Of a stretch of 51,295 nucleotides of DNA, positions 4,627 through 35,422 are shown piece after piece. Position numbers and translations under genes: made by a program. Source of the stretch: Patescibacteria group bacterium (GTDB taxonomy: Bacteria > Patescibacteriota > JAHJAL01); the NCBI GenBank assembly GCA_049322675.1, contig JBMORM010000020.1:1-51295 (forward strand), in the 5' to 3' direction. Below the pieces are notes generated by a model. It worked only from the letters and a program-made list of their open reading frames with translations. It was not told the DNA's origin and made no database searches. Each line of letters opens with the position of its first letter. Positions within the stretch are counted from its first letter, which is position 1.

Positions 4627-4663
4627 GAGGTTTTTTTGATTGATAAACAGATATTATTCTAAC

Positions 4664-4710: not shown

Positions 4711-4729
4711 GCGAAAATTTTATCGAAGA

Positions 4730-17842: not shown

Positions 17843-17946
17843 AAAAAGTGAAAAACCTCCGGTTTGGTTGCCGGAGGTTTTTCTTAAGAAAAAATTAATA
17901 TTTGGGGTGTATGATGGGGGCGTTGAGGTTGTTTTGGTGGTAAAAT
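17843..17946 (+). repeat. 104-bp direct repeat, copy 1 (contains a terminator hairpin at 17851..17882)
   Basis: AAAAAGTGAAAAACCTCCGGTTTGGTTGCCGGAGGTTTTTCTTAAG...GTTTTGGTGGTAAAAT matches 19132..19235 with 2 mismatches. Confidence 0.9.
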
Positions 17947-18192: not shown

Positions 18193-19044
18193 ATGATGAA
18201 AAGAAAAATAAAAGTTAAAGGCAAGGAAATTTTGTTGTTAAGTAAGGAAAAAGAAGATTATATTTCGCTGACTGATATTGCCAGATATAAGAATGCGGAG
18301 ACAACAGGACTAGTGATTTCTCATTGGTTGAGTACTCGGTATACTATTGAGTTTTTGGGTATTTGGGAACGAATTAATAATCCAAATTTTAATGTTACGG
18401 AATTCAGTAACATTAAAAATAATGCCGGTTCAAATGGTTTTGTTTTATCGAATAAACAATGGATAGAAAAAACCGGGGCAATTGGTATTATTTCCAAATC
18501 TGGCAGATATACAGGCGGGACTTATGCGCACAAGGATATTGCATTTGAATTTGCTTCTTGGATTAGTCCGGAGTTTAAGCTGTATTTGATCAAAGATTAT
18601 CAGCGTCTCAAAGAGCAAGAGATTGAAAGAGAAAAACTGGGTTGGGATCTAAAGAGAAATTTAGCCAAGATAAATTATAGAATTCATACTGACGCAATCA
18701 AGGAATATATTATTCCGAAAAAATTGAGTGGTAATGATAAGTTTGTTTATGCCAATGAGGCGGATTTGTTGAATAAAGCATTGTTTGGACAAACTGCTTT
18801 GGAATGGAAAAAAACTAATCCTGATAAAGAAGGGAATATCAGAGATTATGCAGATGTCGCCCAACTGGTGGTGTTGGTCAATTTGGAAAATTTGAACGCG
18901 GAATTTATCAGGCAGGGTTTGGTGCCGGAGGTGAGATTGGAGAAATTAAATGAAATTGCGATTATGCAAATTGAAGCGTTGGTGGGTAATAGGAGTGTGA
19001 GGAGGTTGGAAGATTTGGACAACAAAAAAGGGCCATCGTCCTAA
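18193..19044 (+). CDS. KilA-N domain-containing protein
   Basis: 283 aa. The N-terminus IKVKGKEILLLSKEKEDYISLTDIARYKN...ISHWLSTRYTIEFLGIWE matches the KilA-N DNA-binding domain pattern common in phage, plasmid and defense-island contexts. Confidence 0.8.
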   Translation: MMKRKIKVKGKEILLLSKEKEDYISLTDIARYKNAETTGLVISHWLSTRYTIEFLGIWERINNPNFNVTEFSNIKNNAGSNGFVLSNKQWIEKTGAIGIISKSGRYTGGTYAHKDIAFEFASWISPEFKLYLIKDYQRLKEQEIEREKLGWDLKRNLAKINYRIHTDAIKEYIIPKKLSGNDKFVYANEADLLNKALFGQTALEWKKTNPDKEGNIRDYADVAQLVVLVNLENLNAEFIRQGLVPEVRLEKLNEIAIMQIEALVGNRSVRRLEDLDNKKGPSS

Positions 19045-19131: not shown

Positions 19132-19235
19132 AAAAAGTAAAAAACCTCCGGTTTGGTTGCTGGAGGTTTTTCTTAAGAAAAAATTAATATTTGGGGTGTA
19201 TGATGGGGGCGTTGAGGTTGTTTTGGTGGTAAAAT
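19132..19235 (+). repeat. 104-bp direct repeat, copy 2 (terminator hairpin at 19139..19171)
   Basis: Same sequence as 17843..17946 apart from G>A and C>T. The C>T change converts one stem pair to a G-U wobble. Confidence 0.9.
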
Positions 19236-19266: not shown

Positions 19267-20196
19267 ATGGCTTTATACCAATTGGGTAAACAAAAAATAT
19301 GTTTGATCGAAGAAAAGAAAATTGATCTGGAAAAAAATATTCAAGGAGTGATTGAAAATAATTTGGATGAAATATTTGGGCTGCAATTTGTTTGTAGTGA
19401 GTTGCCGCTGCATAATTTTCGGATTGATACATTGGCTTTTGATGAAGAAACAAAATCGTTTGTGATTATTGAATACAAAAGAGACAAGAGTATTAGTATT
19501 GTTGATCAAGGCTTTAGTTATCTGGCTTTGATGATAAACAACAAGGCCGATTTTGTGCTGGAATACAACGAAAAACTGGGAAAAAATTTGAATAAGACGG
19601 CGATTGACTGGTCGCAGTCGAGGGTGGTATTTATTGCCAATAGTTTTACTACTTACCAACAAAATGCGATCAATTTTAAAGATTTGCCGATAGAATTGTA
19701 TGAAGTAAAAATTTTTGAAGACGATATTTTGTCAATCAACCAATTGAAACCAATTTCGTCGACCGAGTCGATCAAGACGATTTCAAAATCCAAGAATGTG
19801 GAGACGGTGAGCAAGGAGATAAAAATTTATACGGTTGAAGATCATTTCAAACCGGGGTGGGAAAAATCGCGGGAGTTGTTTGATGATTTGCGAGAGAAGA
19901 TTTTGGGATTGGATGATCGGATTGAGGAAAAATTTAATAAACCATATATCGGGTATCAGGTTGGTCGCAAAAATATTGTGGCGGTGATCGCGCAAAAACA
20001 GAAGTTGATTTTTGAATTGAATCGGACTGATATTCGAAACAAGGAAGTCAAAGATCCGGAGAAAAAAGTATATTATCGAAAAGATAGTAAGGAATATTTT
20101 AATCAACACATTAGTCGTTTTGATATCAATAATTTTAATGATGTTGATTATGCAGTGTTTTTGGCAAAGCAAGTTTGGGAGAGGTTTTTTAAATAA
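19267..20196 (+). CDS. PD-(D/E)xK nuclease-like (NucS/DUF91-type) N-terminal domain plus DUF5655-like C-terminal domain protein
   Basis: The N-terminus has the pattern LEKNIQGVIENNLDEIFGLQFVCSELPLHNFRIDTLAFDEETKSFVIIEYKRDK (D...ExK). The C-terminal half (YTVEDHF...PYIGYQV...) resembles DUF5655. It ends 8 nt before the methylase start. Confidence 0.55.
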   Translation: MALYQLGKQKICLIEEKKIDLEKNIQGVIENNLDEIFGLQFVCSELPLHNFRIDTLAFDEETKSFVIIEYKRDKSISIVDQGFSYLALMINNKADFVLEYNEKLGKNLNKTAIDWSQSRVVFIANSFTTYQQNAINFKDLPIELYEVKIFEDDILSINQLKPISSTESIKTISKSKNVETVSKEIKIYTVEDHFKPGWEKSRELFDDLREKILGLDDRIEEKFNKPYIGYQVGRKNIVAVIAQKQKLIFELNRTDIRNKEVKDPEKKVYYRKDSKEYFNQHISRFDINNFNDVDYAVFLAKQVWERFFK

Positions 20197-20204
20197 TAAA
20201 TAAT

Positions 20205-22235
20205 ATGAATATTTCACAATTAATAAAATCTGATGGTAAATACGATTTATCAATTTTTTCTGGGGAGAGTATTGATCGTATTGAAAAAAATATTTTTGAA
20301 AAAAATGAGAAATATTTTGTTAAATGTCTAAAAAGGAATAAAGACATTCAAGTAAAACCGGAAGAGATTGTAAGGCAGTTGATGATTGATAAATTGTTAA
20401 GTGAATATGGCTACACAGTTGATTTGATTGATGTGGAATATGTTGTTTCTTTTGGTCGGGAGAAAAAATTTGCCGATATTGTGATTTTGAATAAAGCTGA
20501 TAAAACGAGTATTTATTGTGTGTTGGAAATCAAAAAGCACAAGGCGCAGGATGGCAAAGATCAATTAAAAAGTTATACCAATGCGACTGGTGCGCCGTTG
20601 GCTGTTTGGACCAATGGAGTGGAAATAAATTATTATGAAAGACTAGATCCAAACTATTTTGAACCGCTTTCTGATTTGCCAAAAGCAAATGAAACAATTG
20701 ATGATGTAAAAAATGAAAAATTTACATATTTGGAATTGATGCAAAAAGACAGACTCTTGGAAGAGAGAAAGTCTTTGAAATCTTTGATCCAAGAAATGGA
20801 AGATGAGGTATTGTCCAATGCTGGTGTGGATGTTTTCGAAGAAGTATTTAAACTAATATTTACGAAATTGTATGACGAAATGGAAAGTGCTGATGATCGA
20901 GTAAATATTGAAACTCAATATAAAATAGTTAAAAAACAAAATCCGGAATTAGCTGATAAGCAAATTCTAGAAAAAGTTGACAGTGATGGTTTTAGAAAAT
21001 TGGAATTTAGAAGTCGAGGAGATGCACATCATACCAAAGAAGTAATAAATAATTTGTACCAAAAAGCCAAAGACAAATGGCAAGGTATTTTTGAAAAAGG
21101 TGAGCCACTACGAATTACTGACGAAAACCACTTACAAATTTGTGTGGGTTTTTTGCAGAATGTGAAATTATTTAATTCTAATTTGCAAGTAATAGATGAA
21201 GCTTTTGAATACTTGGTCAACAAATCTGCCAAGGGAGAAAAAGGGCAATATTTCACACCTAGAAATGTGATTGATATGTGTGTTTATATGATGAATCCGC
21301 AAGCTAACGAATATATGATTGATACGGCTTGTGGCAGTTGTGGATTTACGGTCCATACACTTTTTAATGTTTGGCAAAAATTGGTCAATCAAGGCAAAGC
21401 ACATTTTGCCAATTTTTCCAATCAAAAACTGACGAGTGAACAAAAAAATTATGTTGATAAAGTTTTCGGAATTGATTTTGATGAAAAATCTGTTCGCGTG
21501 GCTCGTACTCTAAATATGATTGCTGGAGATGGCAGGACAAATGTATTGCATTTGAATACTTTGGATTACACGAGATGGGAAGAAAAATTAAAAGATAATT
21601 CGTGGGCAAAAACGTATCTTGAAGGATATTATCGACTGTTAGATTTGGCAAAAGATCGTCAAAATCCCAAAGATTTTAATTTTGATATCGTAATGGCAAA
21701 CCCGCCTTTTGCGGGGGATATAAAAGATAGCAGATTGATTTCCAATTATGAAGTTGCCTTTAATGGCAAAAAGAAAGCAAACAAAGTTTCTCGTGACGTT
21801 TTGTTTATTGAGAGAAATTTGGATTTTCTCAAACCGGGTGGTCGGATGGCGATTGTGTTACCGCAGGGGAGATTTAATAATACTAGTGATGAAAAGATTA
21901 GAAATTTTGTTATGGAGAGGGCGAGATTGATCGCAGTGGTGGGGCTAGATGGAAATACATTTAAACCCCATACAGGCACAAAAACTTCTGTCTTGTTTGT
22001 ACAAAAATGGGATGATGAGATCAATCCAAAAGTTGATGATTATGAGATTTTTATGGCAGTGAGTGAGTGTAGCGGAAAAGATAATTCTGGGCTTGAGATT
22101 TATGAGATGGATGAAAATGGGGAGAGAAAACTGGATGAACATAATCATTTGATTCAAAAGCATGATCTGAAAGATATTGCGGAGGCTTTTGAGAAGTGGG
22201 CAAGAGGGCAAAAGCTTGGTTTTTGGAAATTTTAG
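20205..22235 (+). CDS. hsdM: N6-adenine DNA methyltransferase (type I HsdM-like, gamma class) with a fused N-terminal HsdR_N-type PD-(D/E)xK domain
   Basis: Motif I is IDTACGSCGF and motif IV is ANPPFAG, with YFTPRNVIDMCVYMM upstream. The N-terminal ~190 aa carry EEIVRQLMIDKLL...FADIVIL...YCVLEIKK (D-Xn-E-X-K). Confidence 0.88.
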   Translation: MNISQLIKSDGKYDLSIFSGESIDRIEKNIFEKNEKYFVKCLKRNKDIQVKPEEIVRQLMIDKLLSEYGYTVDLIDVEYVVSFGREKKFADIVILNKADKTSIYCVLEIKKHKAQDGKDQLKSYTNATGAPLAVWTNGVEINYYERLDPNYFEPLSDLPKANETIDDVKNEKFTYLELMQKDRLLEERKSLKSLIQEMEDEVLSNAGVDVFEEVFKLIFTKLYDEMESADDRVNIETQYKIVKKQNPELADKQILEKVDSDGFRKLEFRSRGDAHHTKEVINNLYQKAKDKWQGIFEKGEPLRITDENHLQICVGFLQNVKLFNSNLQVIDEAFEYLVNKSAKGEKGQYFTPRNVIDMCVYMMNPQANEYMIDTACGSCGFTVHTLFNVWQKLVNQGKAHFANFSNQKLTSEQKNYVDKVFGIDFDEKSVRVARTLNMIAGDGRTNVLHLNTLDYTRWEEKLKDNSWAKTYLEGYYRLLDLAKDRQNPKDFNFDIVMANPPFAGDIKDSRLISNYEVAFNGKKKANKVSRDVLFIERNLDFLKPGGRMAIVLPQGRFNNTSDEKIRNFVMERARLIAVVGLDGNTFKPHTGTKTSVLFVQKWDDEINPKVDDYEIFMAVSECSGKDNSGLEIYEMDENGERKLDEHNHLIQKHDLKDIAEAFEKWARGQKLGFWKF

Positions 22236-22252
22236 TTTTTACTTACATAAGA

Positions 22253-24064
22253 ATGAAATACACTAAATTTATTGTCAAAAAATTCAAAGGTATTGAAAGG
22301 TTGGAACTAGATCTGACAAAATATCCTGTTGGAAAAATTTTCCCATTGGTTGGATTAAATGAGAGCGGAAAAACAACTATTTTAGAATCTCTAAATTTCT
22401 TTCAAGAAGATTTGTCTGATGGGAAAAAACATGAAATTCTACATAAAAAGGACAGTGGGAGCTTTACAGGAAATATCGAGGTTGAAGCTGAGTTATTGTT
22501 GGACGATGGTGATAATAAAATCATTAAAGATTATCTAAATTCTAAATCCTTTAAAATTGAAAATGATATTGAAAGAATTACGATTACAAAAAAATATATT
22601 TTTAAAAATGCTTCATTTGAAAAGTCAGAATCGACTTGGTTTTGGAATCCAAGCTTAAAGGTAAAAACTGGTACGCAAAGATCTTACAAGGGTTTGTATC
22701 CTGAGAATGAAGAGGTATGGAAAGAGCTAACGAATGAAGTTAAGAAAATTATTCCTAAAATATTATATTTTCCCGATTTTCTTTTCGATTTTCCAACAAA
22801 AATATATTTAGAAAATATCGAAACCATAACAAGTGAAAAGGAAAAAGAAGTACAAAAAGAGTATAAACAAATAATTGACGACATATTACATACCATTAAT
22901 TCTAATTATTCAATCAACGATTTTTTAACAAAACTAAAAGCTTTAACTGATACCGCAAAACAATCTGCTGCCTCTCAAATAAAACAAGAAATTTCTTCAA
23001 TTTTAAATCAAAAAATCGTAGCTCCTTGGCAAGAGATATTTCAGGGACCAAATAAAAACATCATTATTGAAACTGGTAATGATCAAACAGGGTATTTTAT
23101 CCAGTTGAAAGTGAATGAAGGCACAAGTCATTTTTTGATAAATGAAAGGAGTCTTGGTTTTAGATGGTTTTTTGGTTTTATTCTTTTTACAGAATTTAGA
23201 AAAGCGAGAGCTGATGAAAGTGGTGAATATCTTTTTTTATTTGATGAACCAGCAAGCAATTTGCATGAAAGTTCTCAGCAGAAATTGTTATCTCTTTTTG
23301 AAAATTTGATTGATAAATCAAAAATAATATATTCAACACATAGCCCATATCTTATAAATCCAAAATATATTTTAAATTGTTTTATAGTTAAAGATGCAGG
23401 AAGGGAAAATTCAAATGATTATGATTTTAGACAAAATATTAATGCAATACCATATAGGCAGTTTGTAGCAAATTATCCGGATGAAGAAACACATTTTAAG
23501 CCAATTCTTGATGTTTTGCAATTTTGTGCTACCGATTTTGATTTGGCAGACAAGATTGTGTTTTTTGAAGGGAAATTTGATTACTATACTTTTAAATGGA
23601 TATTAAAAACTTTTTTTAATGATGCTTGTTTTGATTTTAAGTTTTATCCAGGGGCAAGCGTTGATAAATATGAAAACATTTTTAGAGAATATTTAGCTCA
23701 TAATAAAAAATTTGTTGCTATTTTTGATGCAGATGGGAATGAGACCACAAAAGGTAAAGGAGCAAAAAATAGGTACATAAACAATATTTCTCAAGAGCTA
23801 GAAAAACAAGTATTTACTCTCAATGATGTAGATCAAAATTTTGATACTTTTACTACAGAAAAGTTATTTACAGAAACTGAAAGATTACAAATTCAACAAA
23901 AATCATTTCCAAGTTATACTATTTTTAATAAAAATCATTTCAATTCAGCGATTCTAGAGCTTTTCATTAGTGAAGAATCTTTCACTTTATCAGACGAAAC
24001 AAAAGAAAATTTTAAAAAAATCCTTGAATTTATTAAAAATAAATTTACCCAATTAGATATATAA
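22253..24064 (+). CDS. OLD-family-like protein: ABC-type ATPase with a C-terminal Toprim/DUF4435-like domain
   Basis: ATG at 22253 (the ORF-track start at 22196 overlaps hsdM). Walker A is GLNESGKTT, Walker B is YLFLFDEPASNLH and the H-loop is YSTHSPYL. The C-terminus has KIVFFEGKFDYYTF (E-G-x-x-D) and VAIFDADG (DxD), typical of Toprim. Confidence 0.7.
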   Translation: MKYTKFIVKKFKGIERLELDLTKYPVGKIFPLVGLNESGKTTILESLNFFQEDLSDGKKHEILHKKDSGSFTGNIEVEAELLLDDGDNKIIKDYLNSKSFKIENDIERITITKKYIFKNASFEKSESTWFWNPSLKVKTGTQRSYKGLYPENEEVWKELTNEVKKIIPKILYFPDFLFDFPTKIYLENIETITSEKEKEVQKEYKQIIDDILHTINSNYSINDFLTKLKALTDTAKQSAASQIKQEISSILNQKIVAPWQEIFQGPNKNIIIETGNDQTGYFIQLKVNEGTSHFLINERSLGFRWFFGFILFTEFRKARADESGEYLFLFDEPASNLHESSQQKLLSLFENLIDKSKIIYSTHSPYLINPKYILNCFIVKDAGRENSNDYDFRQNINAIPYRQFVANYPDEETHFKPILDVLQFCATDFDLADKIVFFEGKFDYYTFKWILKTFFNDACFDFKFYPGASVDKYENIFREYLAHNKKFVAIFDADGNETTKGKGAKNRYINNISQELEKQVFTLNDVDQNFDTFTTEKLFTETERLQIQQKSFPSYTIFNKNHFNSAILELFISEESFTLSDETKENFKKILEFIKNKFTQLDI

Positions 24065-24066
24065 CT

Positions 24067-25425
24067 ATGCCCCAAATAAGCTACATAAAATATTCGGATA
24101 TTTTAAAAGAAAGTTCTGAACTTAGAATTGAAGCAGAATTTTATATTAATTTAAACAAATACAAGATTAAAAAGTTTATTTTTGGGAAAGATATTATTGA
24201 TTTTGTTCAATATGGAACTTCAAAAGACTTGAATGAAGAGCAAAAAGGTTTTCCAATTCTTAGATTAAATGAATTTGATGGATATTATATAGGGAGTCCT
24301 TCAAAATATTCCAATTTAATAACAAAAGAAATTTTCGAATCTTTGAAACTTAAAAAAGGAGATGTTTTGATTTGTAGAACTAATGGAAATCCACATTATG
24401 TTGGCAAATCTGCAATTTGTATGGAAAATTTAGAGGTGGGATATGCTTCATATTTATTTAGAATAAGACCAAATAAAGAAATAAATTCAGAATCTTTAAT
24501 GATCTATTTAAACTCTGATTATGGAAGAAACGAGATAGAAAAACATTCAATGGTTAGCAACCAAGCAAATTTTAGTCCTGCAAAATTTAGACAAATTAAA
24601 ATTCCTCTTCTTCCTCAATCTTTCCAACTACAAATCGAAGAAATCGTAAAATTCGCTTACCGAAAACAAACCCAATCCAAACAACTCTACCGCGAAGCCG
24701 AAAAATTGCTTTTGCAGGAACTTGGACTTTTGGATTATCGAGTCAAACATTCGCTTTGGTTTGCTACAACAAAAAAAGAAATTGATGAAGCCAAAAGATA
24801 TGATAGTGAATATTTTCAGCCGAAATATGCGGAGATTATAAGGAAAATTGAGGAATATGAGGGCGGATATTTCAAATTATCAGATAAAAATTATGCAAAA
24901 ATATCTCGTGGTTCATTGATTCCTGATAGTTTTTATAATTCAGAAAAAGGCAATCCGTATATCAGAGGCGCTGATTTTTCAAGTGGCATTTTAGGAAACG
25001 ATAAACTTGTATTTATTGATGATTCTTTTCAAAAGACAAGGGAGACGATGGTAAGAGAAAATGATATTGTTTTTTCATTAATAGGCAGTGTCGGAGCAAC
25101 TGCGATAGTTTCAAAAAATTTTGATAATTCATTTATTTCAAATAATACTGGAAAAATTCGTGTAATAAATTTTGATCCAGTTGTTTTGCAAATAATATTT
25201 CAGTCTGTTGTTGGAAAACTTCAATTTGAAAAAGAAAAAACTCAAACAGCGCAACCGAAAATTTCAAGTGATCAAGTCGGAAATTTCAAAATCCCTCTCA
25301 TTAAACAATCTATCCAACTACAAATCAATGAAAAAATCCAAGAGAGCCATAGATTGAGAAAAGAAAGTAAAAAATTATTGGAGGAGGCGAAGAGAAAAGT
25401 GGAGGAGGAGATTGAGAGGGGATAA
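24067..25425 (+). CDS. hsdS: type I restriction-modification specificity subunit (two TRDs)
   Basis: 452 aa with two target-recognition halves. Each half ends in the conserved helical spacer: IPLLPQSFQLQIEEIVKFAYRKQTQSKQLYREAEKLLLQELGL, and IPLIKQSIQLQINEKIQESHRLRKESKKLLEEAKRKVEEEIE. It starts 2 nt after the upstream stop. Confidence 0.88.
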   Translation: MPQISYIKYSDILKESSELRIEAEFYINLNKYKIKKFIFGKDIIDFVQYGTSKDLNEEQKGFPILRLNEFDGYYIGSPSKYSNLITKEIFESLKLKKGDVLICRTNGNPHYVGKSAICMENLEVGYASYLFRIRPNKEINSESLMIYLNSDYGRNEIEKHSMVSNQANFSPAKFRQIKIPLLPQSFQLQIEEIVKFAYRKQTQSKQLYREAEKLLLQELGLLDYRVKHSLWFATTKKEIDEAKRYDSEYFQPKYAEIIRKIEEYEGGYFKLSDKNYAKISRGSLIPDSFYNSEKGNPYIRGADFSSGILGNDKLVFIDDSFQKTRETMVRENDIVFSLIGSVGATAIVSKNFDNSFISNNTGKIRVINFDPVVLQIIFQSVVGKLQFEKEKTQTAQPKISSDQVGNFKIPLIKQSIQLQINEKIQESHRLRKESKKLLEEAKRKVEEEIERG

Positions 25426-25510
25426 AAGGTAGTCAAATCTTTGTTTGACAGTAATTATTTTTTATTTTATTATTAGTCATAGTAGTTATATATAGTTATA
25501 TATATTTTTC

Positions 25511-26173
25511 ATGAGAAATAAACTTTCTAAAAACCAGATGATTTTTTTCAAATTTTTAAAAAACTATATTTCTCGAAATAAATATTCTCCTACATATAGT
25601 GAAATGCTCGATTTGTTATCGGCAGAGGGACTGAGGATAAAAAGTAATAATAGTTTGGCTCAATATTTGAAGGTGCTGGAAAAAAAAGGATTAATTAAAA
25701 ACACTTCTTTGCCAAGGGGTATAAAACTTATAAAGGAAGAAGAAAAACAATGTTGTGCCATTCCTTTTTATGGTAAAGCAAATTGTGGTGAAGCATTAAT
25801 TTTTGCTGAAGATACGGTTAATGATTATATAAATATTTCTAGAAAGTATATTTCCGGTGATAAAAATGATTACTTTTTTGTTGAAGCTGATGGAAATTCG
25901 ATGAATAAGGATGGAATTAATAATGGTGATATGGTTTTGGTTAGAAAGAAAAATAATTATTTAAAGAATAAAAATGTTGTTGTGATAATCAATGGATTGG
26001 CAACAATTAAAAAATATATTGAAAAAGATGGTATAACATTTTTGGTTCCATCTTCAACAAATTCAAAACATAAACCAATAATACTGCATCCTGAAGATGA
26101 TATTAATTTTTGCGGTGAAGTAGAAAAGGTTTTTAGTTTTTCAGATATGGATAGCAAAGGAGGTCGAAGCTAA
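25511..26173 (+). CDS. lexA: LexA-like repressor (winged-helix plus S24 peptidase)
   Basis: The N-terminus LSKNQMIFFKFLKNYISRNKYSPTYSEMLDLL...LKVLEKKGLIK is a LexA DNA-binding domain pattern. The S24 catalytic Ser is in ADGNSM and the Lys is in ATIKKY. The linker is IPFYGKANCGEA. Confidence 0.8.
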   Translation: MRNKLSKNQMIFFKFLKNYISRNKYSPTYSEMLDLLSAEGLRIKSNNSLAQYLKVLEKKGLIKNTSLPRGIKLIKEEEKQCCAIPFYGKANCGEALIFAEDTVNDYINISRKYISGDKNDYFFVEADGNSMNKDGINNGDMVLVRKKNNYLKNKNVVVIINGLATIKKYIEKDGITFLVPSSTNSKHKPIILHPEDDINFCGEVEKVFSFSDMDSKGGRS

Positions 26174-27389: not shown

Positions 27390-27496
27390 AAGATTTTGGA
27401 GGATGTCAAAATTATAGCAAGCTGTAATCTAGCTGGATGTTTTGGTTGATATCGTTTATTATCTCGTTTAACTGATTTTCGCGATATATTGAGATA

Positions 27497-27572
27497 GGTT
27501 GGGTTTCGCCGGAGGTATTTTGTGTTAAGGAAAAATTAATATTGGATCGGTATAATGATGGTGGGTGGGTTA
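27497..27572 (+). repeat. degenerate third copy of the 104-bp island repeat
   Basis: GGTTGGGTTTCGCCGGAGGTATTTTGTGTTAAGGAAAAATTAATATTGGATCGGTATAATGATGGTGGGTGGGTT aligns by eye (roughly 70%) with GGTTTGGTTGCCGGAGGTTTTTCTTAAGAAAAAATTAATATTTGGGGTGTATGATGGGGGCGTT. The left half of the hairpin is missing. Confidence 0.45.
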
Positions 27573-27666
27573 TTATTTCGATAATACAGAATTGAAAAGA
27601 GAATCAAATATTAGGAAATTCAAAATAGTTCAAAATATCGCAATAGAAAATAATAAGTATAAATTT

Positions 27667-28734: not shown

Positions 28735-29790
28735 TTATAACAATCCGTAATTTAACTGACTATTGGTGATTAGATTTATTTTTTGATTGTCGGATGTGTT
28801 CAAAACTAAGCTGGTTCCCTCCACTGGGCAGCCGGCGGCGTAAACGATGTCTTGGTGGATGTCGCTGATGATTTGGCCGCCGAGGTGGGAGCTGGTGCCG
28901 TAGGCGATGTGGAGGCCGACTTTTTCGTCTTCCAAAATATTGCCGGTGACGACGGCTTCGGGGTTGCAGCCCAGGCCAAGTTCGGCAATATTTAAGCGGG
29001 TGGGATTTTGCCAGAGGTATTCTTTGAGTTTGGTGGCTAGGGGGTTGTCTCCTTGGATTTCGGTTATTTTATTTTCTTTGATGACAAATTTTATCAGTTG
29101 ATCATTTTCTTTGTATGGCAAAATGCCGTTGGTTTGACTGGGGCCAAATTGGGCCAGCTCACTTTCTACAGCCTCATATGGAACCTTGAAAGCTTCGCCG
29201 CTGGGGAAGTTGATAAATTGGCCGGGGGTGGTGCATTCGCCTTTGTCGGCTTGGGCGGTGCGGTTTCTTAAATCCAGGTGGAGAGTGTCGCCGGTGGAAA
29301 AAGTGATATCGCAGCTGTCGGATTGATTTAATAATTTTTGGAGAGCCAAAGCGTAGCGTTTGACGAGTTGGTAATCGGCTTTGAGGGAAGTTTCTTCCAT
29401 GCGTTTTTCGATGCCGGGCATACTGGCGACACGAAATTGTAAATTGGGTTGTTGGCACAGTGGTTTTAAAGAAGAAGAAGCGGAAAATTCGGTGAGGGCG
29501 CAGACGAGGTTGTATTCGGAAATTTTGTCCAATAGCTCTGGTGGGAGTGGAGAGTTGTTGATACCGGTGGCGGGAAATTCCAGGTAATCGATGACTTGGT
29601 CGGGGAATTCATTTTTTTGACCGATGATTTGGAATAATTCTTGCCACTCGTGGGCCATGTTGATTCTTTCCTGCCAGCCGGGGTTGACGGTGATTTGATC
29701 GTGCGGGGTGTCAACGATGATGAGAATTTTTTCCCCGGCTTGCGGGGCGAAGACGTCGGTGATTAGTTTTATTTTTTCGGTTTGGTTCAT
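28735..29790 (-). CDS. M29 (AmpS/aminopeptidase T)-like aminopeptidase
   Basis: 351 aa. The C-terminal pattern NFPSGEAF...IAELGLGCNPEAVVTGNILEDEKVGLHIAYG resembles the conserved metal-site region of the M29 family. Confidence 0.55.
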   Translation of the reverse strand: MNQTEKIKLITDVFAPQAGEKILIIVDTPHDQITVNPGWQERINMAHEWQELFQIIGQKNEFPDQVIDYLEFPATGINNSPLPPELLDKISEYNLVCALTEFSASSSLKPLCQQPNLQFRVASMPGIEKRMEETSLKADYQLVKRYALALQKLLNQSDSCDITFSTGDTLHLDLRNRTAQADKGECTTPGQFINFPSGEAFKVPYEAVESELAQFGPSQTNGILPYKENDQLIKFVIKENKITEIQGDNPLATKLKEYLWQNPTRLNIAELGLGCNPEAVVTGNILEDEKVGLHIAYGTSSHLGGQIISDIHQDIVYAAGCPVEGTSLVLNTSDNQKINLITNSQLNYGLL

Positions 29791-29820
29791 TTTATTAATA
29801 GTTAAAAGTTATGTGGAAGC

Positions 29821-29982
29821 GTGAGAAAGTGTAAAAGTGAGAAAGTGTAAAAGTGAGAAAGTGTAAAAGTGAGAAAGTGTAAAAGTGAGAAAGTGTAAAA
29901 GTGAGAAAGTGTAAAAGTGAGAAAGTGAAAACGTATAAAGGTTTTGACTTTCGTGCGTTTTCACTTTTACACGTTTGCACGC
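29821..29982. repeat. 16-bp tandem array with an inverted terminal copy
   Basis: GTGAGAAAGTGTAAAA occurs as 6 perfect copies, followed by the variant GTGAGAAAGTGAAAAC (29821..29932). After a 24-nt loop comes the inverted copy GTTTTCACTTTTACACGTTTGCACGC (29957..29982), giving a stem-loop. Confidence 0.9.
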
Positions 29983-29998
29983 TATAAGTTGTTTCAAG

Positions 29999-30088
29999 CT
30001 AAAGTCCCATTTTATATGAATAGATAATATAGCCGATAAAGATCAGGATAATAATTACGAGCGCTGTTAGCCAAAATGATCTGGACAT
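29999..30088 (-). CDS. tiny hydrophobic peptide (29 aa), hypothetical
   Basis: MSRSFWLTALVIIILIFIGYIIYSYKMGL with a single TM. No clear RBS. Confidence 0.25.
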   Translation of the reverse strand: MSRSFWLTALVIIILIFIGYIIYSYKMGL

Positions 30089-30226
30089 AAAAATTGGTTA
30101 TTTGTTTCTTTGTCTCATTGTAACAAATATTTTTCCGGTATGCAGAAAATGGATTTTTTGGTAAAAAAAGAAAATACTATTTGAAGTATTTTCTTTAGAA
30201 AAATTTTGATTGGTCAGAGGTGGATA

Positions 30227-30763
30227 TTATTTGATCTGGTTGAGTTGTTCCAAATATTTTTCAGTGTTCCAGTCATCAGTGCTTTGAACTATTTTTTCAC
30301 CCTTAGAGTTGATGATAATTTTAGTTGGCTCGGCGGCGACTTGGTATTGAGTGGCGAGTTGGGATTCGGCGGCGGAAGAGTCGGGTGAGTTGTATTTGAG
30401 ACTAAAACCGATCAGATTGGGAAGATCGAGTTGATTGAAAGCGGAGATGGCATTTTGCATTTCAATCAGACAGACAGTGTCGTTTTGGTTACAAAAGATG
30501 AGAAAGATATTTTTTTTATCGATTTGTGCTTTTTGATAATCTTCGGGAGTAAAGTTGAGAAGGGGGGCGGTGGTACCGGCGAGAGTGGAGCCGATGTAGG
30601 GGGTGCCGTTTTTGGTGACGTTGAGGGACAATTCAGTGGAGGTGGAGCTGGTTTGGTTTTCGACCGGTTCTTTGACCTCGGGGGCGATAACAGTGTCGCA
30701 ACCGACGAGCATGGTGACCAATAAAATAGAAAAGATTATGGGCAAGGAATATTTTTTTGTCAT
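30227..30763 (-). CDS. lipoprotein, possibly thioredoxin-like fold without CxxC
   Basis: Signal plus lipobox MTKKYSLPIIFSILLVTMLVGC. It is the last gene of the ABC exporter operon. Confidence 0.6.
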   Translation of the reverse strand: MTKKYSLPIIFSILLVTMLVGCDTVIAPEVKEPVENQTSSTSTELSLNVTKNGTPYIGSTLAGTTAPLLNFTPEDYQKAQIDKKNIFLIFCNQNDTVCLIEMQNAISAFNQLDLPNLIGFSLKYNSPDSSAAESQLATQYQVAAEPTKIIINSKGEKIVQSTDDWNTEKYLEQLNQIK

Positions 30764-30848
30764 GGGTTGTAAATTTAATTTTTAAAATTTTTGCTTAGGT
30801 TTATTATCTAATAATTTGAAAAAAAAGAAAATGTTTGTCGGGTAATGA

Positions 30849-31355
30849 TTACAGAATTTTTTTTAATTGCTGGTGAGAGTTTTTGTCCAACTTGGCGAGC
30901 GATTCGATCAGAAAAAAGTTGCCGATTGAGTCTTTGACGATCAGACGGTCGGCGGTGATATAGGTGATGTGGCGGGAAGGGGTGCGCATGGCGAATTTGA
31001 TTGGACCGCGATCGGTTTCGACGGTCCAATAGCGAGTGCCGAAATCAATGTCGATTTTGAGAATTTGGTTGATTATCGGTAGAAAATATTTTTCTTTGAT
31101 GGCCTGACGAATGATTTTTTGGTTACTTAGACTGGTTTGATTGATATTGGCCAGAAAATATATTTCTTCTTTTTTTTGGTTGGTAAAGACGATGTCCTTG
31201 TGAATGGAGATGAGGGGTTTTAGAACGCTGATTTCCACTTTTGTTTTTGGTTTTTGACCAAATTGAATGAAAAAATCATGGTTTGATTCGGACAAAATCA
31301 TGTTTTCGGTGGATTTGGAATCGTTGTTCATGGATTTTATATTATTTTTATTCAT
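30849..31355 (-). CDS. DUF1854-like protein associated with the ABC exporter
   Basis: ATG at 31355 overlaps the ABC stop by 8 nt. The C-terminal RYWTVETDRGPIKFAMRTPSRHITYITADRLIVKDSIGNFFLIESLAKLD resembles the DUF1854 pattern known downstream of ABC transporters. Confidence 0.5.
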   Translation of the reverse strand: MNKNNIKSMNNDSKSTENMILSESNHDFFIQFGQKPKTKVEISVLKPLISIHKDIVFTNQKKEEIYFLANINQTSLSNQKIIRQAIKEKYFLPIINQILKIDIDFGTRYWTVETDRGPIKFAMRTPSRHITYITADRLIVKDSIGNFFLIESLAKLDKNSHQQLKKIL

Positions 31356-33570
31356 GCAATATTTCTCCTTTGATGCGGGTGAGGCGGGATTGGATAGCGA
31401 CCAGTTTGGCGTATTTGCCATTTTTTTTCAGCAAGTAATCGTGAGTGCCGGTTTCGATGATTTTTCCGTCTTCGATAAAAACCAAACGATGGGCGTTGCG
31501 GAGGGTGGAGAGGCGGTGGGCGATAGCGATAGTGGTGCGATTGTTGATGAGAATATCCAGGGCGTCTTGGATTTTTTTCTCGGTTTCGACATCGACGGAG
31601 GAAGTGGCTTCGTCCAAGATGAGGATGGGAGGATTTTGGAGGATGGCGCGGGCGATGGAAAGTCGTTGTTTTTCGCCGCCGGAAAGCTTGAGACCGCGTT
31701 CGCCGATAATAGTATTATAGCCGTTTTCTTTTTGGATGATAAATTCGTGAGCGCGGGCGGCGCGAGCGGCGGCGAGGATGTCGGAAAATTTGGCTTGATA
31801 ATTGCCGTAGCGAATATTGTCGAGAATGCTGCCATTGAATAAAAATGGTTCTTGCAAAACTAGTCCGATATTGCGGCGGAGGAAATCCAGGGGATAGTTT
31901 TTGATATTTTTGTCATCAATCAAAATTTGGCCGCTGTCGGGGTCGTAAAAACGGTTGATCAGATTGATGATAGTGCTTTTGCCGGCGCCGGATTTGCCGA
32001 CCAGTCCGATCATTTCACCCGGTTTAATATCAAAGGAAAGTCCCTTGATAACTTCTTTGCCTTGTTCGTAGCTAAATCTGATGTTTTGAAAAATGATGTG
32101 TCCGGAAATTGGTTTAGTTTTAACGGAGGTAGTTTTGATTTCTTCTTCCGGTAAGTCCAGGATTAAAAATATTCTCTCGGCGGCGGCCAAGGCGTGGGTG
32201 AGCCAATTGAGGATTTGAGTGAACCATTGGAGTGGTCCGTAGAATAGCCAGATGTAGCCGACAAAAGCCAAAAGATCACCGAGGGTCAAATCTTGGGAAA
32301 AAATTATTCTTTTGGTAGCAAAAAGCCAGACGCCGATGATGCCGATTTGCATAATAACGTACATGATTTGTCGGAAGCCAATCCAGTATTGATCGATGCG
32401 ATAATTGCTGGTAAAAAGTTGATTGCTTGAGGTTTGAAATTCTATTTCGTGACGGGGTTGTTGGGTAAAGGCTTTGACTATTCTTATGCCTTCGATTGAT
32501 TCGCCGAGGATTGTCATGACTTGATCGCGGACGCTGCCGCGATAATGAAATAGGGGGATCAGTTTTTCTAAAAACCATTTGGAACCGAAAATCAGAAAGG
32601 GAACGGGAAGGAGAATGAGTAGGGTCAGTTTGAAATCAATATACAAGAGAATGCCGGCAATTAGGATGACGGAAAAAATATTGATGACGAGGTAAGACAA
32701 GCCGTCCATGAGAAAATGTTCGATTTCGTTGGTGTCACTGAGAGTTTTGCTGACCAACTCGCCGGAAGGGAAACGATTGAAAAAAGTTAGTTTGATCCGG
32801 AGGATTTTGGAATATACTTGTTCGCGGAGATCGGCGATAACGCGGGTGGCTAACCAGGTGGTTTGGATGCCGGAAAAATAACTACTGACAAAATAGATGA
32901 TATTGACGGCCAACATTATGATTATCCAAAAATTGAGATCGTTGATTTGACCGTTTTTTATCACATCATCGACAATCCTTTTGGTGATGTAAGGGGGGAC
33001 GGTTTGAGCGGCGACCATGATGCCGGTAATGACTAGGAGATACAAGGTTTGAAAGCGATATGGTTTTAGAAGATTGAAGAGTCGGGCCAGGATGGTGATT
33101 TTTGGTAAACAGATGGGACAGTTGCTGCCTCTTTCCGGAAGGGGATTGCCGCAACGGGCGCAGTGGGAGTTGTGGATACGATCGGGGATAAGAGTAGTCG
33201 TTTGTTTGGTATGAAGGTAGAGGTTGGTTAGACGGACGATGGTACCAAATTGGGGAGCGAGGTTTTTGGTGTAATAGAGAACGATTTCGGATTGATGGGG
33301 GGTGATGGCTATTAATCTGGTGTGGTTAAAAAGTTCGTTAACTTTTAATTTTTTGATTTTTGAGAGTAAAATTTCGGATATGATTTTTTCTGAGTCGATG
33401 ACCAAGAGGCGAATATTGGTAATGACCAAATAGTTGGGATAGAATTTTTTTTGTTGATTGAGGTCGGTAAGTTGGGTATAGATTATTTTTTCACCTGGTT
33501 GCAGGAGTTTGGTACTAAGGAGTTGGAATGGTTTCTGATTGAGGTAAAAATTGTATTTGGCGGTACGCAT
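31348..33570 (-). CDS. ABC exporter (fused TMD-NBD, MsbA-like) with an N-terminal bacterial-PH-like domain and a zinc ribbon
   Basis: Walker A GKSGAGKST, signature LSGGEKQR, Walker B ILILDEATS and H-loop IAHRLST, with six TM helices. An extra ~150-aa N-terminus carries GEKIIYTQ...LVITNIRLLVID and CARCGNPLPERGSNCPIC. Confidence 0.9.
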   Translation of the reverse strand: MRTAKYNFYLNQKPFQLLSTKLLQPGEKIIYTQLTDLNQQKKFYPNYLVITNIRLLVIDSEKIISEILLSKIKKLKVNELFNHTRLIAITPHQSEIVLYYTKNLAPQFGTIVRLTNLYLHTKQTTTLIPDRIHNSHCARCGNPLPERGSNCPICLPKITILARLFNLLKPYRFQTLYLLVITGIMVAAQTVPPYITKRIVDDVIKNGQINDLNFWIIIMLAVNIIYFVSSYFSGIQTTWLATRVIADLREQVYSKILRIKLTFFNRFPSGELVSKTLSDTNEIEHFLMDGLSYLVINIFSVILIAGILLYIDFKLTLLILLPVPFLIFGSKWFLEKLIPLFHYRGSVRDQVMTILGESIEGIRIVKAFTQQPRHEIEFQTSSNQLFTSNYRIDQYWIGFRQIMYVIMQIGIIGVWLFATKRIIFSQDLTLGDLLAFVGYIWLFYGPLQWFTQILNWLTHALAAAERIFLILDLPEEEIKTTSVKTKPISGHIIFQNIRFSYEQGKEVIKGLSFDIKPGEMIGLVGKSGAGKSTIINLINRFYDPDSGQILIDDKNIKNYPLDFLRRNIGLVLQEPFLFNGSILDNIRYGNYQAKFSDILAAARAARAHEFIIQKENGYNTIIGERGLKLSGGEKQRLSIARAILQNPPILILDEATSSVDVETEKKIQDALDILINNRTTIAIAHRLSTLRNAHRLVFIEDGKIIETGTHDYLLKKNGKYAKLVAIQSRLTRIKGEILHE

Positions 33571-33752
33571 AACGCAAAGATGCCTAGAGGGGCGTCACTA
33601 GACATTTTTAGAAAATAAAAATTTTAATTAGTTATATTTTAACCAATGTATGATTAAGCTGAGATTAAATGCAATTTTGTTGGTATAATGAGGATGGAAG
33701 TGATATGGTGTTTTGGTCAAATTTTTATTTGCGCTATTTAGCAGGAGGTTTT

Positions 33753-33935
33753 ATGGAAGATGATAATTGTTGCGGTTGTCAGTGCGGGAACAACAATTGC
33801 GTTTGTCAGGCTTGCAAAATGCCGATGAAAAAAAATGAAGATTTTGGGACTGAAGCGGATGGTGGCCAAAATTGTGATTATTGTATTCATTGCTATCAGA
33901 ATGGAGTTTTGATTACTGAAGATGATAAGGCCTGA
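33753..33935 (+). CDS. Cys-rich zinc-ribbon protein (Zn_ribbon_2-like), 60 aa
   Basis: ATG at 33753 follows AGGAGG. It reads MEDDNCCGCQCGNNNCVCQACKMPMKKNEDFGTEADGGQNCDYCIHCYQNG and matches the C.MP....FGT..DG...DYC..CY.NG pattern. Confidence 0.6.
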   Translation: MEDDNCCGCQCGNNNCVCQACKMPMKKNEDFGTEADGGQNCDYCIHCYQNGVLITEDDKA

Positions 33936-33953
33936 TTGATAGATTGAAGTATT

Positions 33954-33988
33954 AAAAAACATCACCCAAAGCAGGTGATGTTTTTTTG
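33954..33988. terminator. bidirectional intrinsic terminator
   Basis: A6-CATCACC-caaagca-GGTGATG-T7, between convergent genes. Confidence 0.65.
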
Positions 33989-34001
33989 ATGCCAATGTTT
34001 T

Positions 34002-34934
34002 CTAGAGATTCTGGAAGAAATCAGAGGAAAGAAGAGTGCCAAAAATGCCAAAAGCGAGAGCGGCCAAGATGATACCGATAATGATAATAATACCCACGAT
34101 GGCTAAGATAATCATCCAAGTTTTGGAGGATTGAGGAGTGCTGTCATCAGGTCGAAGTTCGGTCAAGTTTTTGTAGATGAGATAAGTATAAATGACAGGT
34201 AATGGAGCTACAAAAATTGAGAGTAATCCTTGCATGATGTTGGCGATCCAGCCGAGGCCGATGATTCCGGCGGTAAGTCCGATGGGAGTTACGATAATAC
34301 CAATGAATGCATTTAGTATGTAAATAATGATTCCGATGATTATCATACGGGCTAGTATGTCCCACCAACGGCTGGAAATGATGCTTTTGCTTTTGGCCAG
34401 GGCATCGAAACCAAATTGATTTTTGTCCAACATGGTCCAATGTGCCAGTTGAAAAAAGACAGAAATGATTATGCCGGGGATGATGAGAAAGGCGAAACCG
34501 GGTAGGCTAACCAAGGCGGATATAATACCGATCCAGATAAAAGCGAAAATATAGCGAAAACCTTTTTTGTAAAGAGCAAAGGTTCCCAATTTTTCTTGAT
34601 CCAAGACGGCGAGCATGAGAGTAGATTGAAACCAGGATCCTAGAAGAATGGCGACAATGATCACGAAGATGATGGTTAAAATGAAGACGATGGTTAGTAT
34701 GGTGTTGAGGAGGCCGGTAGTCGAGTTGAGGGTGGGGGCAAGAGCTAAAGCAATGATGGCCACGATGATGGCCAAAATCAGCGCCGGGACGATGGTGACT
34801 AGTTGAACGGTGATACAGGAAAACAATTTTTCTTTGTACAATTGCCAGGTTTGATTGATCAATAGACTGATGTCGGTCATGTTTTTGTGAGGAATGACTT
34901 TGGCGTGATCGATTGAATTTTCTTTTTGGTTCAT
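34002..34934 (-). CDS. polytopic membrane protein, hypothetical
   Basis: 310 aa with about 6-7 long hydrophobic segments. No catalytic motifs recognised. Confidence 0.6.
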   Translation of the reverse strand: MNQKENSIDHAKVIPHKNMTDISLLINQTWQLYKEKLFSCITVQLVTIVPALILAIIVAIIALALAPTLNSTTGLLNTILTIVFILTIIFVIIVAILLGSWFQSTLMLAVLDQEKLGTFALYKKGFRYIFAFIWIGIISALVSLPGFAFLIIPGIIISVFFQLAHWTMLDKNQFGFDALAKSKSIISSRWWDILARMIIIGIIIYILNAFIGIIVTPIGLTAGIIGLGWIANIMQGLLSIFVAPLPVIYTYLIYKNLTELRPDDSTPQSSKTWMIILAIVGIIIIIGIILAALAFGIFGTLLSSDFFQNL

Positions 34935-34957
34935 GAAGAAAGTTAATAAATAAAATG

Positions 34958-35380: not shown

Positions 35381-35422
35381 AAAAACTATTTGATAATTAT
35401 TTTCATTATAACAAAAAGTGGT

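Follow-up and report, generated by a model that had tools for sequence, protein, structure and literature searches.

A Patescibacteria locus with a BsaXI/BcgI-like restriction-modification gene pair, an embedded ABC ATPase-Toprim gene and a NucS-like gene: probably three separable defence modules

Could a restriction-modification (RM) operon without HsdR, with extra nuclease-like genes packed into it, represent a new composite defence system, or is it composed of recognised modules placed side by side? This question is raised by four adjacent genes on a Patescibacteria (CPR) chromosome, found in a stretch of 51 kb (the window, i.e., the whole DNA that was analysed). Based on the letters and open reading frames only, a first-pass annotation had regarded them as a candidate for an undescribed four-gene composite. 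Here, we examine the genes by profile searches, fold comparison and the survey of homologous loci.

Layout of the locus

The four genes, which are referred to as A to D, are listed below.

Gene A, 19267..20196, + strand: 309 aa; N-terminal NucS/EndoMS-like PD-(D/E)xK domain (E45, D54, E69-x-K71) and C-terminal DUF5655; PDC-S18
Gene B (RM subunit), 20205..22235, + strand: 676 aa; HSDR_N_2 PD-ExK nuclease and gamma-class N6-adenine methyltransferase
Gene C (embedded cargo), 22253..24064, + strand: 603 aa; OLD/GajA-like ABC ATPase fused to a Toprim-like nuclease domain
Gene D, 24067..25425, + strand: 452 aa; HsdS-type specificity subunit with two target-recognition domains (TRDs)

They are real genes and not chance reading frames: the ORFs are long, and they match known profiles and folds strongly. 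The co-oriented ORFs and their gaps of 8, 17 and 2 nt (A/B, B/C and C/D, respectively) were found as first described, and the domain calls for all four proteins were upheld by Pfam and PADLOC profiles together with fold matches. No convincing terminator or promoter was found within A-D, and the four genes are probably co-transcribed, as had been proposed. The start of gene C is the ATG at 22253, with the GTG at 22196 as an upstream alternative; 33 homologs begin with MKYTKF.

The earlier observation that the window lacks an SF2 helicase or HsdR also held. None was detected in the window by Pfam searches of every ORF of at least 150 aa, and HsdR was found there neither by jackhmmer with EcoKI HsdR nor by a four-seed HsdR profile run over all stop-to-stop segments. 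The absence of HsdR covers 51 kb of this genome and 10 kb around about 80 loci homologous to the gene B family.

A probable type IIB-like enzyme from genes B and D

Gene B matches the Pfam families HSDR_N_2 at residues 52-159 (1.8e-23) and N6_Mtase at residues 329-665 (3.6e-34). The nuclease domain lies at ~20358-20681 and carries E78, D91, E108 and K110, while the methyltransferase domain lies at ~21189-22199 and carries DTACGSCGF and NPPF. The top PDB match of gene B in phmmer is RM.BsaXI (8w0p, 4.8e-26), in which both the nuclease (36-123) and the methylase (327-604) are aligned. In BsaXI, mutagenesis identified E73/D90/E105/K107 as catalytic, and type IIB enzymes have these residues in common (PMC11997821). 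The corresponding tetrad of gene B is retained by 60-61 of 61 homologs, which come from many phyla and share 49-90% identity, and the methylase motifs (NPPF and motif I) do not vary in any of the 61. The fusion of a nuclease domain to the methylase N-terminus, as first annotated, is thus confirmed, and with the tetrad conserved in gene B, HsdR would therefore not be needed.

For gene D, two stretches of Methylase_S were identified in Pfam, and the PADLOC profiles Specificity_I and mad5 were matched. An internal 46-nt repeat (24598-24643 and 25288-25333) corresponds to the duplicated conserved region. Both the HsdM-type methylase and the two-TRD HsdS stand. Compared with the S proteins of close relatives, gene D shows 35-40% identity, against 82-90% for gene B. 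In 61 homologous loci the S gene lies downstream of the RM gene, either directly or behind cargo genes. A Klebsiella plasmid has the RM-S pair without R. The B family also includes single-chain RMS fusions, and such relatives are known from the BsaXI family survey as well.

To regard the nuclease-methylase and S genes as BcgI-like (type IIB) is therefore supported by the significant BsaXI similarity over both domains and by the conserved tetrad. As in BsaXI and BcgI, an N-terminal PD-ExK domain with its catalytic E/D/ExK residues is joined to a gamma-class N6-adenine methylase, the two-TRD S subunit is separate, and no HsdR is present. However, RM.BsaXI (916 aa) is longer than gene B (676 aa) by about 240 residues, and gene B may lack its paddle and possibly also its knob. 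In addition, the B/D gene pair is interrupted here by a cargo gene.

By comparison with these enzymes, the two-TRD S subunit would read a bipartite site, and two RM subunits would join it as (RM)2S. Through its NPPF methylase, the complex could modify host DNA by methylating adenine in each half-site. Unmethylated DNA would be cut near the site by the E-D-ExK nuclease of gene B with no HsdR motor, presumably on both sides of the site as for BsaXI and BcgI.

The cargo slot, gene C and gene A

Among the 61 loci having both M and S, the RM-S interval is empty in 19. In the other 42 it is filled by 1-7 cargo genes in the same orientation, which belong to about 40 unrelated families, such as RhuM, Fic, DUF4145, AAA_15, OLD-like Toprim, the Thoeris-like ThsA/ThsB, GmrSD_N, NYN and PycTM. 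The B-C-D order occurs in about 10 of the 61 loci. That is, the B-D gap is a variable cargo slot of this RM family, and gene C is one such cargo. Defence genes embedded in RM loci, including those for ABC-ATPase/Toprim proteins, have already been described (bioRxiv 10.1101/2024.01.29.577857; PMC11411939; PMC1484252), for example PrrC in EcoprrI, the Rlo genes, TgvAB and the HEC/PDC candidates of Payne et al. 2024; the phage defence candidates (PDCs) of PADLOC originate in the embedding survey. As in the RM, BREX and Hma loci with embedded genes, an ABC-ATPase-nuclease gene is lodged here among RM subunit genes, and the slot cargo is interchangeable (RhuM, Fic, DUF4145, GmrSD-like, NYN). However, the described hosts are complete systems (type I, BREX, DISARM or Hma), whereas gene C is lodged in a nuclease-methylase/S pair that lacks R. 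HEC-04, the ABC ATPase-TOPRIM fusion of Payne et al. 2024, is absent among the 25 best PADLOC matches of gene C, and the effector of PrrC is an anticodon-nuclease domain, that of gene C a Toprim domain.

Gene C matches AAA_15 at residues 1-368 (3.6e-22) and also AAA_21 in Pfam, and its PADLOC matches are AriA (8e-24, the best) and Old (7.5e-17). The ATPase extends from residue 1 to about 370, with Walker A GLNESGKT and Walker B/D-loop LFLFDEPASNLH. The Toprim-like domain contains EGKFDYY (E439/D443) and FDADG (D492/D494), and these four acidic residues are invariant in an alignment of 33 homologs. No Pfam Toprim match was obtained at E<=0.01, the domain being too divergent, and identity to solved OLD/GajA members is about 15%. 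Nevertheless, the model (pLDDT 86.6) gave full-length Foldseek matches to GajA (8x5i, 1.2e-13) and Thermus OLD (6p74, 1.9e-13), and the OLD-like ATPase-Toprim call for the gene between M and S is borne out by this fold and the invariant residues. Gene C thus shares with GajA, OLD and PARIS the ABC ATPase joined to a Toprim nuclease, the profile matches and the conserved acidic metal-binding set. Unlike Gabija, it has no GajB/UvrD helicase partner, and unlike PARIS, no separate AriB/DUF4435 protein.

The gene C family is also found inside canonical type I operons with HsdR, while about 50 of its 80 loci have no RM neighbour by the profiles used; the family can therefore function without RM. Where it is embedded in RM loci, it adjoins hsdS in 23 of 24 cases, at spacings between -20 and +10 nt, in both RM-C-S (nuclease-methylase) and M-S-C-R (canonical type I) arrangements. 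This abutment sets the family apart from OLD, GajA and PARIS; it argues for more than casual co-location and hints at a PrrC-like guard. Gene C is probably an autonomous OLD/Gabija-type ABC-ATPase-Toprim nuclease occupying the cargo slot. It would act as a second line of defence, a nucleotide-gated nuclease that responds to a signal of infection, and the parallels with PrrC, PARIS and Gabija make a phage anti-restriction protein its likely trigger.

Gene A shows a full-length match to PADLOC PDC-S18 (8e-100) and a Pfam match to DUF5655 at residues 190-268 (9e-8). Its AlphaFold model (pLDDT 83.6) has EndoMS/NucS (5gke, 6e-5; 2vld, 1e-4) and SfsA (4dav) as the best PDB folds, and E45, D54, E69 and K71 are the same in each of 31 homologs, which agrees with the original NucS-like and DUF5655 assignment. 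Homologs of gene A adjoin type III RM loci as well as type I loci, both canonical and with cargo. A syntenic relative keeps gene A, at 86.5% nucleotide identity, beside a canonical HsdR-HsdM-HsdS system. The KilA-N gene upstream matches another PADLOC candidate model, PDC-S22. Gene A therefore reads as a separable RM-associated module, a putative NucS-like nuclease that does not depend on B, C or D and whose family is habitually found next to various types of RM operon.

The locus was also compared with MADS, where the gene order methylase-ATPase-...-S is the same and B, C and D give sub-threshold matches to MAD2, MAD3 and MAD5. However, the NCBIfam scores of B, C and D are far under the cut-offs (302 vs. 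720, 25 vs. 420 and 120 vs. 400, respectively) and the mandatory MAD6-8 genes are absent.

One system or separate modules

Based on the modularity observed over about 160 loci, the locus likely comprises three recognised anti-phage modules side by side: the BsaXI/BcgI-like B+D, the OLD/Gabija-type C and the PDC-S18 A. They would form a small defence island, running in one direction and probably sharing a transcript. The alternative that A-D are obligate partners of one new machine, with the C and A nucleases replacing HsdR as the restriction arm, appears highly improbable. The tight co-oriented packing is in line with it, and so is MADS, where restriction needs an ABC ATPase encoded between homologous methylase and S genes. 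The identical four-gene order does recur in one Nomurabacteria contig (L006), but that is the only one of about 80 B-family loci in which gene A is the partner, and the four-gene order is thus nearly unconserved among these loci. Moreover, gene B has its own conserved nuclease, the RM-S interval is often empty or holds unrelated cargo, C occurs with HsdR-containing type I systems or alone, and A adjoins other RM types. The proposal of an undescribed four-gene composite is thus not supported, the more so as such embedding has been described before.

It is also very unlikely that B+D is a methyltransferase only, either orphan or served by an unlinked HsdR, with HSDR_N_2 as a non-catalytic DNA-binding or regulatory domain and C or A as the sole nuclease. 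The nearest PADLOC profile of gene B is indeed filed under type I methyltransferases (MTase_I PDLC03034, 3.5e-260), at variance with the type IIB assignment. The visible genome is 51 kb, so hsdR could be unlinked, and CPR genomes are reduced and often have partial systems. However, it is difficult to see why four BsaXI-essential residues would persist in nearly all homologs across phyla if they did not serve catalysis. HsdR is also missing from the 10 kb around each of the 80 loci, and gene B lacks the HsdM_N domain present in canonical HsdM neighbours. Alternatively, gene C could be a PrrC-like guard that stays latent while bound to S or to RM2S and whose Toprim nuclease (DNA or tRNA) is released when the restriction enzyme is put out of action by a phage anti-restriction protein; we consider this possible, though rather unlikely. 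Precedents exist in PrrC, an ABC-NTPase with a nuclease that EcoprrI keeps latent and the T4 protein Stp activates (PMC1484252), and in PARIS, an ABC ATPase with Toprim that responds to anti-restriction proteins by cleaving tRNA (PMC11464382, PMC9122126) and whose AriA is the best PADLOC match of gene C. The hsdS adjacency in both arrangements favours such a guard, but it may just mark where insertions are tolerated; the RM-less majority of the family speaks against it, and in one locus (L088) two genes separate S from C.

The four genes and their chromosomal setting

The four genes analyzed here are located in chromosomal DNA of a Patescibacteria/CPR bacterium, with housekeeping genes and tRNAs present in the window and CPR MAGs as the source of the nearest loci.

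Features of the four-gene locus
19267-20196, + strand: ORF, gene A, NucS-like PD-(D/E)xK and DUF5655 protein (309 aa)
20205-22235, + strand: ORF, gene B, HSDR_N_2 nuclease fused to an N6-adenine methylase (RM, 676 aa)
22253-24064, + strand: ORF, gene C, OLD/GajA-like ABC ATPase-Toprim protein (603 aa)
24067-25425, + strand: ORF, gene D, HsdS with two TRDs (S, 452 aa)

The positions of these ORFs in the first-pass annotation, as well as the gaps of 8, 17, and 2 nt (A-B, B-C, and C-D, respectively), were reproduced, and its domain calls for all four genes agree with the profile searches. In Pfam, DUF5655 was identified in A, AAA_15/AAA_21 in C, and Methylase_S in two stretches, that is, two TRDs, in D, while B contains HSDR_N_2 at 52-159 (1.8e-23) and N6_Mtase at 329-665 (3.6e-34). 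Gene C starts at the ATG at 22253, not at the GTG at 22196 offered by the ORF list, since all 33 aligned homologs begin at MKYTKF.

The GC content is 0.28-0.35 in the stretch that carries the four genes vs. 0.36-0.46 in the flanks, and the same stretch also holds KilA-N, LexA-like, GIY-YIG, and Bro-N genes. A promoter and terminator scan gave counts at the level of shuffled sequence and is silent on internal transcription units; CPR promoters may differ. Its sole stand-out is a promoter-like site, TTGACA-17-TATTAT (11/12), the strongest sigma-70-like match in the region, which precedes the LexA-like S24 repressor gene at 25445-26173, immediately 3' of hsdS (TIGR00498 at 2e-32); this repressor may be an island regulator. 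In addition, every 1-kb bin from 1 to 51295 shows a strong positive GC skew (+0.09 to +0.51), also over the minus-strand genes (3268-6661 and 28735-36220); this skew far exceeds that usually seen from replication. The region 36503-48604 is occupied by a 3116-aa ORF with weak BNR_2/MG2 matches only, followed by an 881-aa ORF without Pfam match.

The nuclease-methylase B and the specificity subunit D

Among all solved structures, the best match of gene B is RM.BsaXI of type IIB (8w0p, 4.8e-26), with the alignment extending over the nuclease at the N-terminus (B 36-123) as well as the methylase (B 327-604). BsaXI acts as an (RM)2S heterotrimer, whose residues E73, D90, E105, and K107 are essential for cleavage according to mutagenesis and conserved across type IIB enzymes (PMC11997821). 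In the HMMER alignment, E108 and K110 of B align directly to E105 and K107, and D91 is two residues off D90. Homologs of B at 49-90% identity were collected with their genomic surroundings from 80 loci, which span CPR, Ignavibacteria, Gammaproteobacteria, Cloacimonadota, Clostridia, and one Aenigmatarchaeota MAG. E78, D91, E108, and K110 are kept in 60-61 of the 61 full-length homologs, where motif I (DxAxGSxGF) and NPPF are invariant. The S gene follows the RM gene in 61 loci, and an IncF plasmid of Klebsiella carries RM and S without R. Single-chain RMS fusions also occur in the family, both in three of the fetched loci (L061, L068, and L072) and on pAQ6 of Picosynechococcus PCC 7002 (1179 aa); the same variation between single-chain and separate forms has been described for type IIB enzymes (PMC11997821).

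The statement of the first-pass annotation that the window lacks an SF2 helicase or HsdR was upheld by every search. ResIII, Helicase_C, and HSDR_N were found by Pfam in none of the window ORFs of at least 150 aa, and HsdR was found neither in the stop-to-stop segments of the window (EcoKI HsdR jackhmmer and a four-seed HsdR profile) nor within 10 kb of the 80 B-homolog loci (Pfam census, jackhmmer, and the four-seed profile). Among the 41 ORFs of at least 690 aa within 10 kb of the B loci, no helicase family recurs, and the HsdR profile matches none. The absence thus applies to the window and the 10-kb surroundings of the loci; an unlinked copy may lie elsewhere in the genome. Because none of its 80 loci shows a nearby HsdR, the R-less state is the rule for the B family, and consequently the simplest reading is that the B-family enzyme carries its own nuclease. 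A type I RM system (HsdR2M2S) was rejected, as the HsdR SF2 translocase motor is missing from the window and from within 10 kb of the 80 B loci, and HsdM_N was not found in gene B by Pfam; HsdM_N is present in the canonical HsdM of L088 and L089 (loci of C homologs) and of L091 and L092 (loci of A homologs).

Like BsaXI and BcgI of type IIB, gene B unites a nuclease and an N6-adenine methyltransferase in one chain with the conserved PD-ExK residues, and gene D likewise is a separate HsdS-like subunit with two TRDs. Judged from sequence, the pair displays every defining feature of type IIB that can be assessed in this way, and appears to fall in this known class. Based on the BsaXI match, the catalytic residues and the R-less family, the BcgI-like layout suggested earlier is well supported, yet it places the pair in a class already known. 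B and D probably form an (RM)2S type IIB-like enzyme, which would methylate adenine in a bipartite motif and use the PD-ExK domain of B, without need of HsdR, to cleave DNA lacking the methylation. As is characteristic of type IIB, the cuts would fall at fixed distances on both sides of the site, without ATP-driven translocation; stoichiometry and activity are here modeled on BsaXI. That the pair, which has no HsdR nearby and keeps the nuclease residues, is a methylase only is poorly supported and very unlikely. For the "R-less type I" systems often seen in CPR and other MAGs, a type IIB-like RM/S enzyme equipped with its own nuclease is the better reading. Defence-system censuses would be affected, since PADLOC-style rules would score such enzymes as incomplete type I.

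It was also observed that the nuclease-methylase protein is 80-90% identical across CPR, Ignavibacteria, Gammaproteobacteria, Cloacimonadota, and the Aenigmatarchaeota MAG (L007-L085), and that the S and cargo genes of those loci are diverged or swapped. Such wide identity would imply very recent, wide horizontal spread, or else MAG binning noise.

Gene C and the interval between the RM and S genes

Among the 61 loci having both genes, S is located directly after RM in 19, and 1-7 co-oriented genes occur between them in the other 42. These genes form about 40 families by all-against-all clustering, and the interval behaves as a cargo slot. The Pfam census of the interval includes RhuM (8), Fic/DOC (7), and AAA_15/AAA_21 ATPases (5), as well as PDDEXK_3, DUF4145, DUF4357, OLD-like Toprim, Bro-N, DUF6119, DpnII, YhcG, ThsB-TIR and ThsA-Macro, GmrSD_N, NYN, PycTM, and others. 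Many of them match the PADLOC candidate families PDC-S05 and PDC-S23, and C-like genes occupy the interval in about 10-12 loci. Between loci where B is 82-90% identical, C is only 47-88% and S 35-40% identical. The same repertoire is known from genes lodged within RM loci of type I and within BREX, DISARM, and Hma loci, according to the survey from which the PADLOC phage defence candidates (PDCs) derive (Payne et al., 2024, bioRxiv 10.1101/2024.01.29.577857), and embedding has precedents in TgvAB in Vibrio (PMC11411939) and PrrC in EcoprrI (PMC1484252). It is modestly new that R-less RM/S operons of the type IIB-like kind also host embedded genes. The RM-S interval of this highly mobile family can be mined at low cost for more defence candidates by "guilt-by-embedding". 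Seven genes occupy the interval in a Paceibacterota MAG (L018/L096; L018:12050-17977): a DUF4145 gene, ORFs of 77, 379, and 103 aa (the latter two unknown), a Thoeris-like pair (ThsB-TIR and ThsA-Macro), and a C homolog, which is the last and adjoins hsdS.

The C family has more than 3000 members, each about 600 aa long. In the alignment of 33 homologs, Walker A (GLNESGKT), Walker B/D-loop (LFLFDEPASNLH), and H-loop (YSTHS) are invariant, and the C-terminal pattern EGKxDYY ... FDxD contains the invariant residues E439, D443, D492, and D494, although Pfam gave no Toprim match in this domain at E<=0.01. The AlphaFold model (pLDDT 86.6) matches Gabija GajA (8x5i, 1.2e-13) and Thermus OLD (6p74, 1.9e-13) over its full length in Foldseek; its ATPase part alone also matches Septu/retron PtuA and Rad50/SMC heads. 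PADLOC Old matches residues 2-536 at 7.5e-17. Based on the invariant ATPase and Toprim residues and the full-length fold matches, gene C is an OLD/GajA-type ABC-ATPase-Toprim protein, as the first-pass annotation had proposed. It shares with the class 1-like, single-gene OLD family an ABC ATPase followed by a C-terminal Toprim with an acidic metal site. Gabija was rejected, since GajB (UvrD-like helicase) is absent, the neighbours are a methylase and HsdS, and no helicase occurs in the window. The AriA profile of PARIS matches residues 1-368 at 8e-24. PARIS pairs AriA with an AriB DUF4435/Toprim effector; in C, a divergent Toprim is present as a fused domain, with no DUF4435 match and no separate AriB, and a relation to PARIS may exist. 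PrrC/RloC have RM linkage and an ABC ATPase in common with C, but were rejected because the C-terminal domain is Toprim-like, not an ACNase; PrrC is not among the PADLOC and NCBIfam matches listed for C.

Three C homologs were looked up individually: one, from a 2.3-Mb genome, has the same RM-C-S layout, and the other two lie in canonical type I operons with HsdR (HsdM...HsdS...C-Fic-HsdR and HsdM-DUF559-C-HsdS-RhuM/Fic-HsdR). A profile-guided scan of 80 loci (33-88% identity), with jackhmmer in place of a first-pass phmmer too insensitive for the neighbours, gave about 12 nuclease-methylase-C-S loci (all of at least 45% identity), about 12 canonical type I loci with HsdR, mostly M-S-C-R, and about 50 without RM neighbour by the profiles used, among which divergent RM, BREX, and DISARM may be under-called. 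In the RM-free loci, where a GajB/UvrD-like partner was sought downstream of C, the sizes of the neighbours vary from locus to locus. Given the type I loci with HsdR and the RM-free loci, gene C is an autonomous module, often yet not always RM-embedded, and no substitute for HsdR. C directly abuts hsdS in 23 of the 24 RM-embedded loci (from L094-L166 and L087-L089; junction -20 to +10 nt), the exception being L088 with two genes between. In type IIB-like loci C precedes S, and in the canonical ones it follows S, the latter order being the same as in prrA-prrB-prrC-prrD. That the C family tracks hsdS is modestly new.

C would act as an independent, nucleotide-gated Toprim nuclease in a second line of defence. 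Folds, motifs, HsdR absence and modularity were observed directly, whereas we infer the activities, stoichiometry and triggers from BsaXI, OLD/Gabija, PARIS (PMC11464382, PMC9122126), and PrrC. The main live alternative, which we consider unlikely, is that C is a guard of the PrrC type, physically coupled to S and responding to anti-restriction proteins. In that case C would fire when the RM complex has been dislodged or put out of action by an anti-restriction protein of a phage, either an Stp-like factor or a mimic of DNA such as Ocr/ArdA. The C-hsdS adjacency supports such coupling, which would explain why C abuts hsdS across two RM architectures, but the many RM-free members of the family weaken it. 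It is tentatively conceivable, at about the same low level, that the C family is a widespread class of restriction guards docking on the HsdS common to type I and type IIB-like enzymes. If so, C would be a Toprim-armed functional analogue of PrrC, and the RM-S gap of the horizontally mobile nuclease-methylase family studied here would be a dedicated docking slot for second-line modules. The near-constant adjacency offers a concrete hypothesis for infection sensing by this large ABC-ATPase-Toprim family.

Gene A and the turnover of the chromosomal site

Gene A matches PDC-S18 over its full length (8.1e-100, residues 1-304 vs. profile 1-301 of 302) and belongs to a very large, well conserved family (more than 5600 homologs, about 55% identity), in which E45, D54, and E69-x-K71 are invariant. 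In its model (pLDDT 83.6), the N-terminal half matches EndoMS/NucS and SfsA, and the DUF5655 half weakly matches YjbR/DUF1801-type folds. Literature searches on PDC-S18/DUF5655 found nothing useful on A. Because only one of about 80 B loci (L006) has A, it is not a partner of B. In L092, an A homolog precedes a cargo-bearing type I operon, and in L093 one neighbours a type III RM system; A is read as a generic RM-neighbour gene, a separate RM-associated nuclease candidate.

The first-pass annotation had regarded the four genes as the best candidate in the window for an undescribed composite defence system. Its genes, domains and HsdR absence stand; the single shared occurrence of A and the variable RM-S interval go against the composite, and a fully integrated machine of A, B, C, and D is poorly supported and highly improbable. 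MADS, the methylation-associated defence system, was also rejected. Sub-threshold NCBIfam matches to MAD2/3/5 were found, all scores being far below the cut-offs, and MAD6-8, which are mandatory in its authors' model (MADS preprint), are absent, the neighbour genes being KilA-N, LexA-like, GIY-YIG, and Bro-N. The locus adds a further example to kinds already known and leaves current understanding intact.

The same chromosomal site is found in a relative, L091:8001-16930 (GCA_016294905.1, contig JAEAMF010000488.1), which is syntenic with the window in its polysaccharide deacetylase, metallophosphatase, and glycosyltransferase genes and keeps A at 86.5% nucleotide identity. There, a 63-aa ORF and a canonical HsdR-HsdM-HsdS operon come after A, and further on lie an RVT_1 reverse transcriptase and the toxin-antitoxin genes HTH-SocA/Panacea and PemK. 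The different content at the same site indicates a defence-island hotspot with cassette turnover.

Upstream of A, a KilA-N gene (18193-19044), which matches PDC-S22 (2.5e-126), is bracketed by a 104-nt direct repeat with 98% identical copies at 17843-17946 and 19132-19235, containing the hairpin AAAAACCTCCGG...CCGGAGGTTTTT. The relative has a single copy, directly before the A homolog; compared with it, the stretch at about 16.5-19.2 kb of the window is therefore an insertion. A third, diverged copy lies at 27484-27587, 5' of the Bro-N gene. In addition, a tandem array at 29797-29950, with about nine copies of the 8/16-nt unit GTGAGAAAGTGTAAAAGT, is located between two minus-strand ORFs and adjoined by an imperfect inverted repeat.
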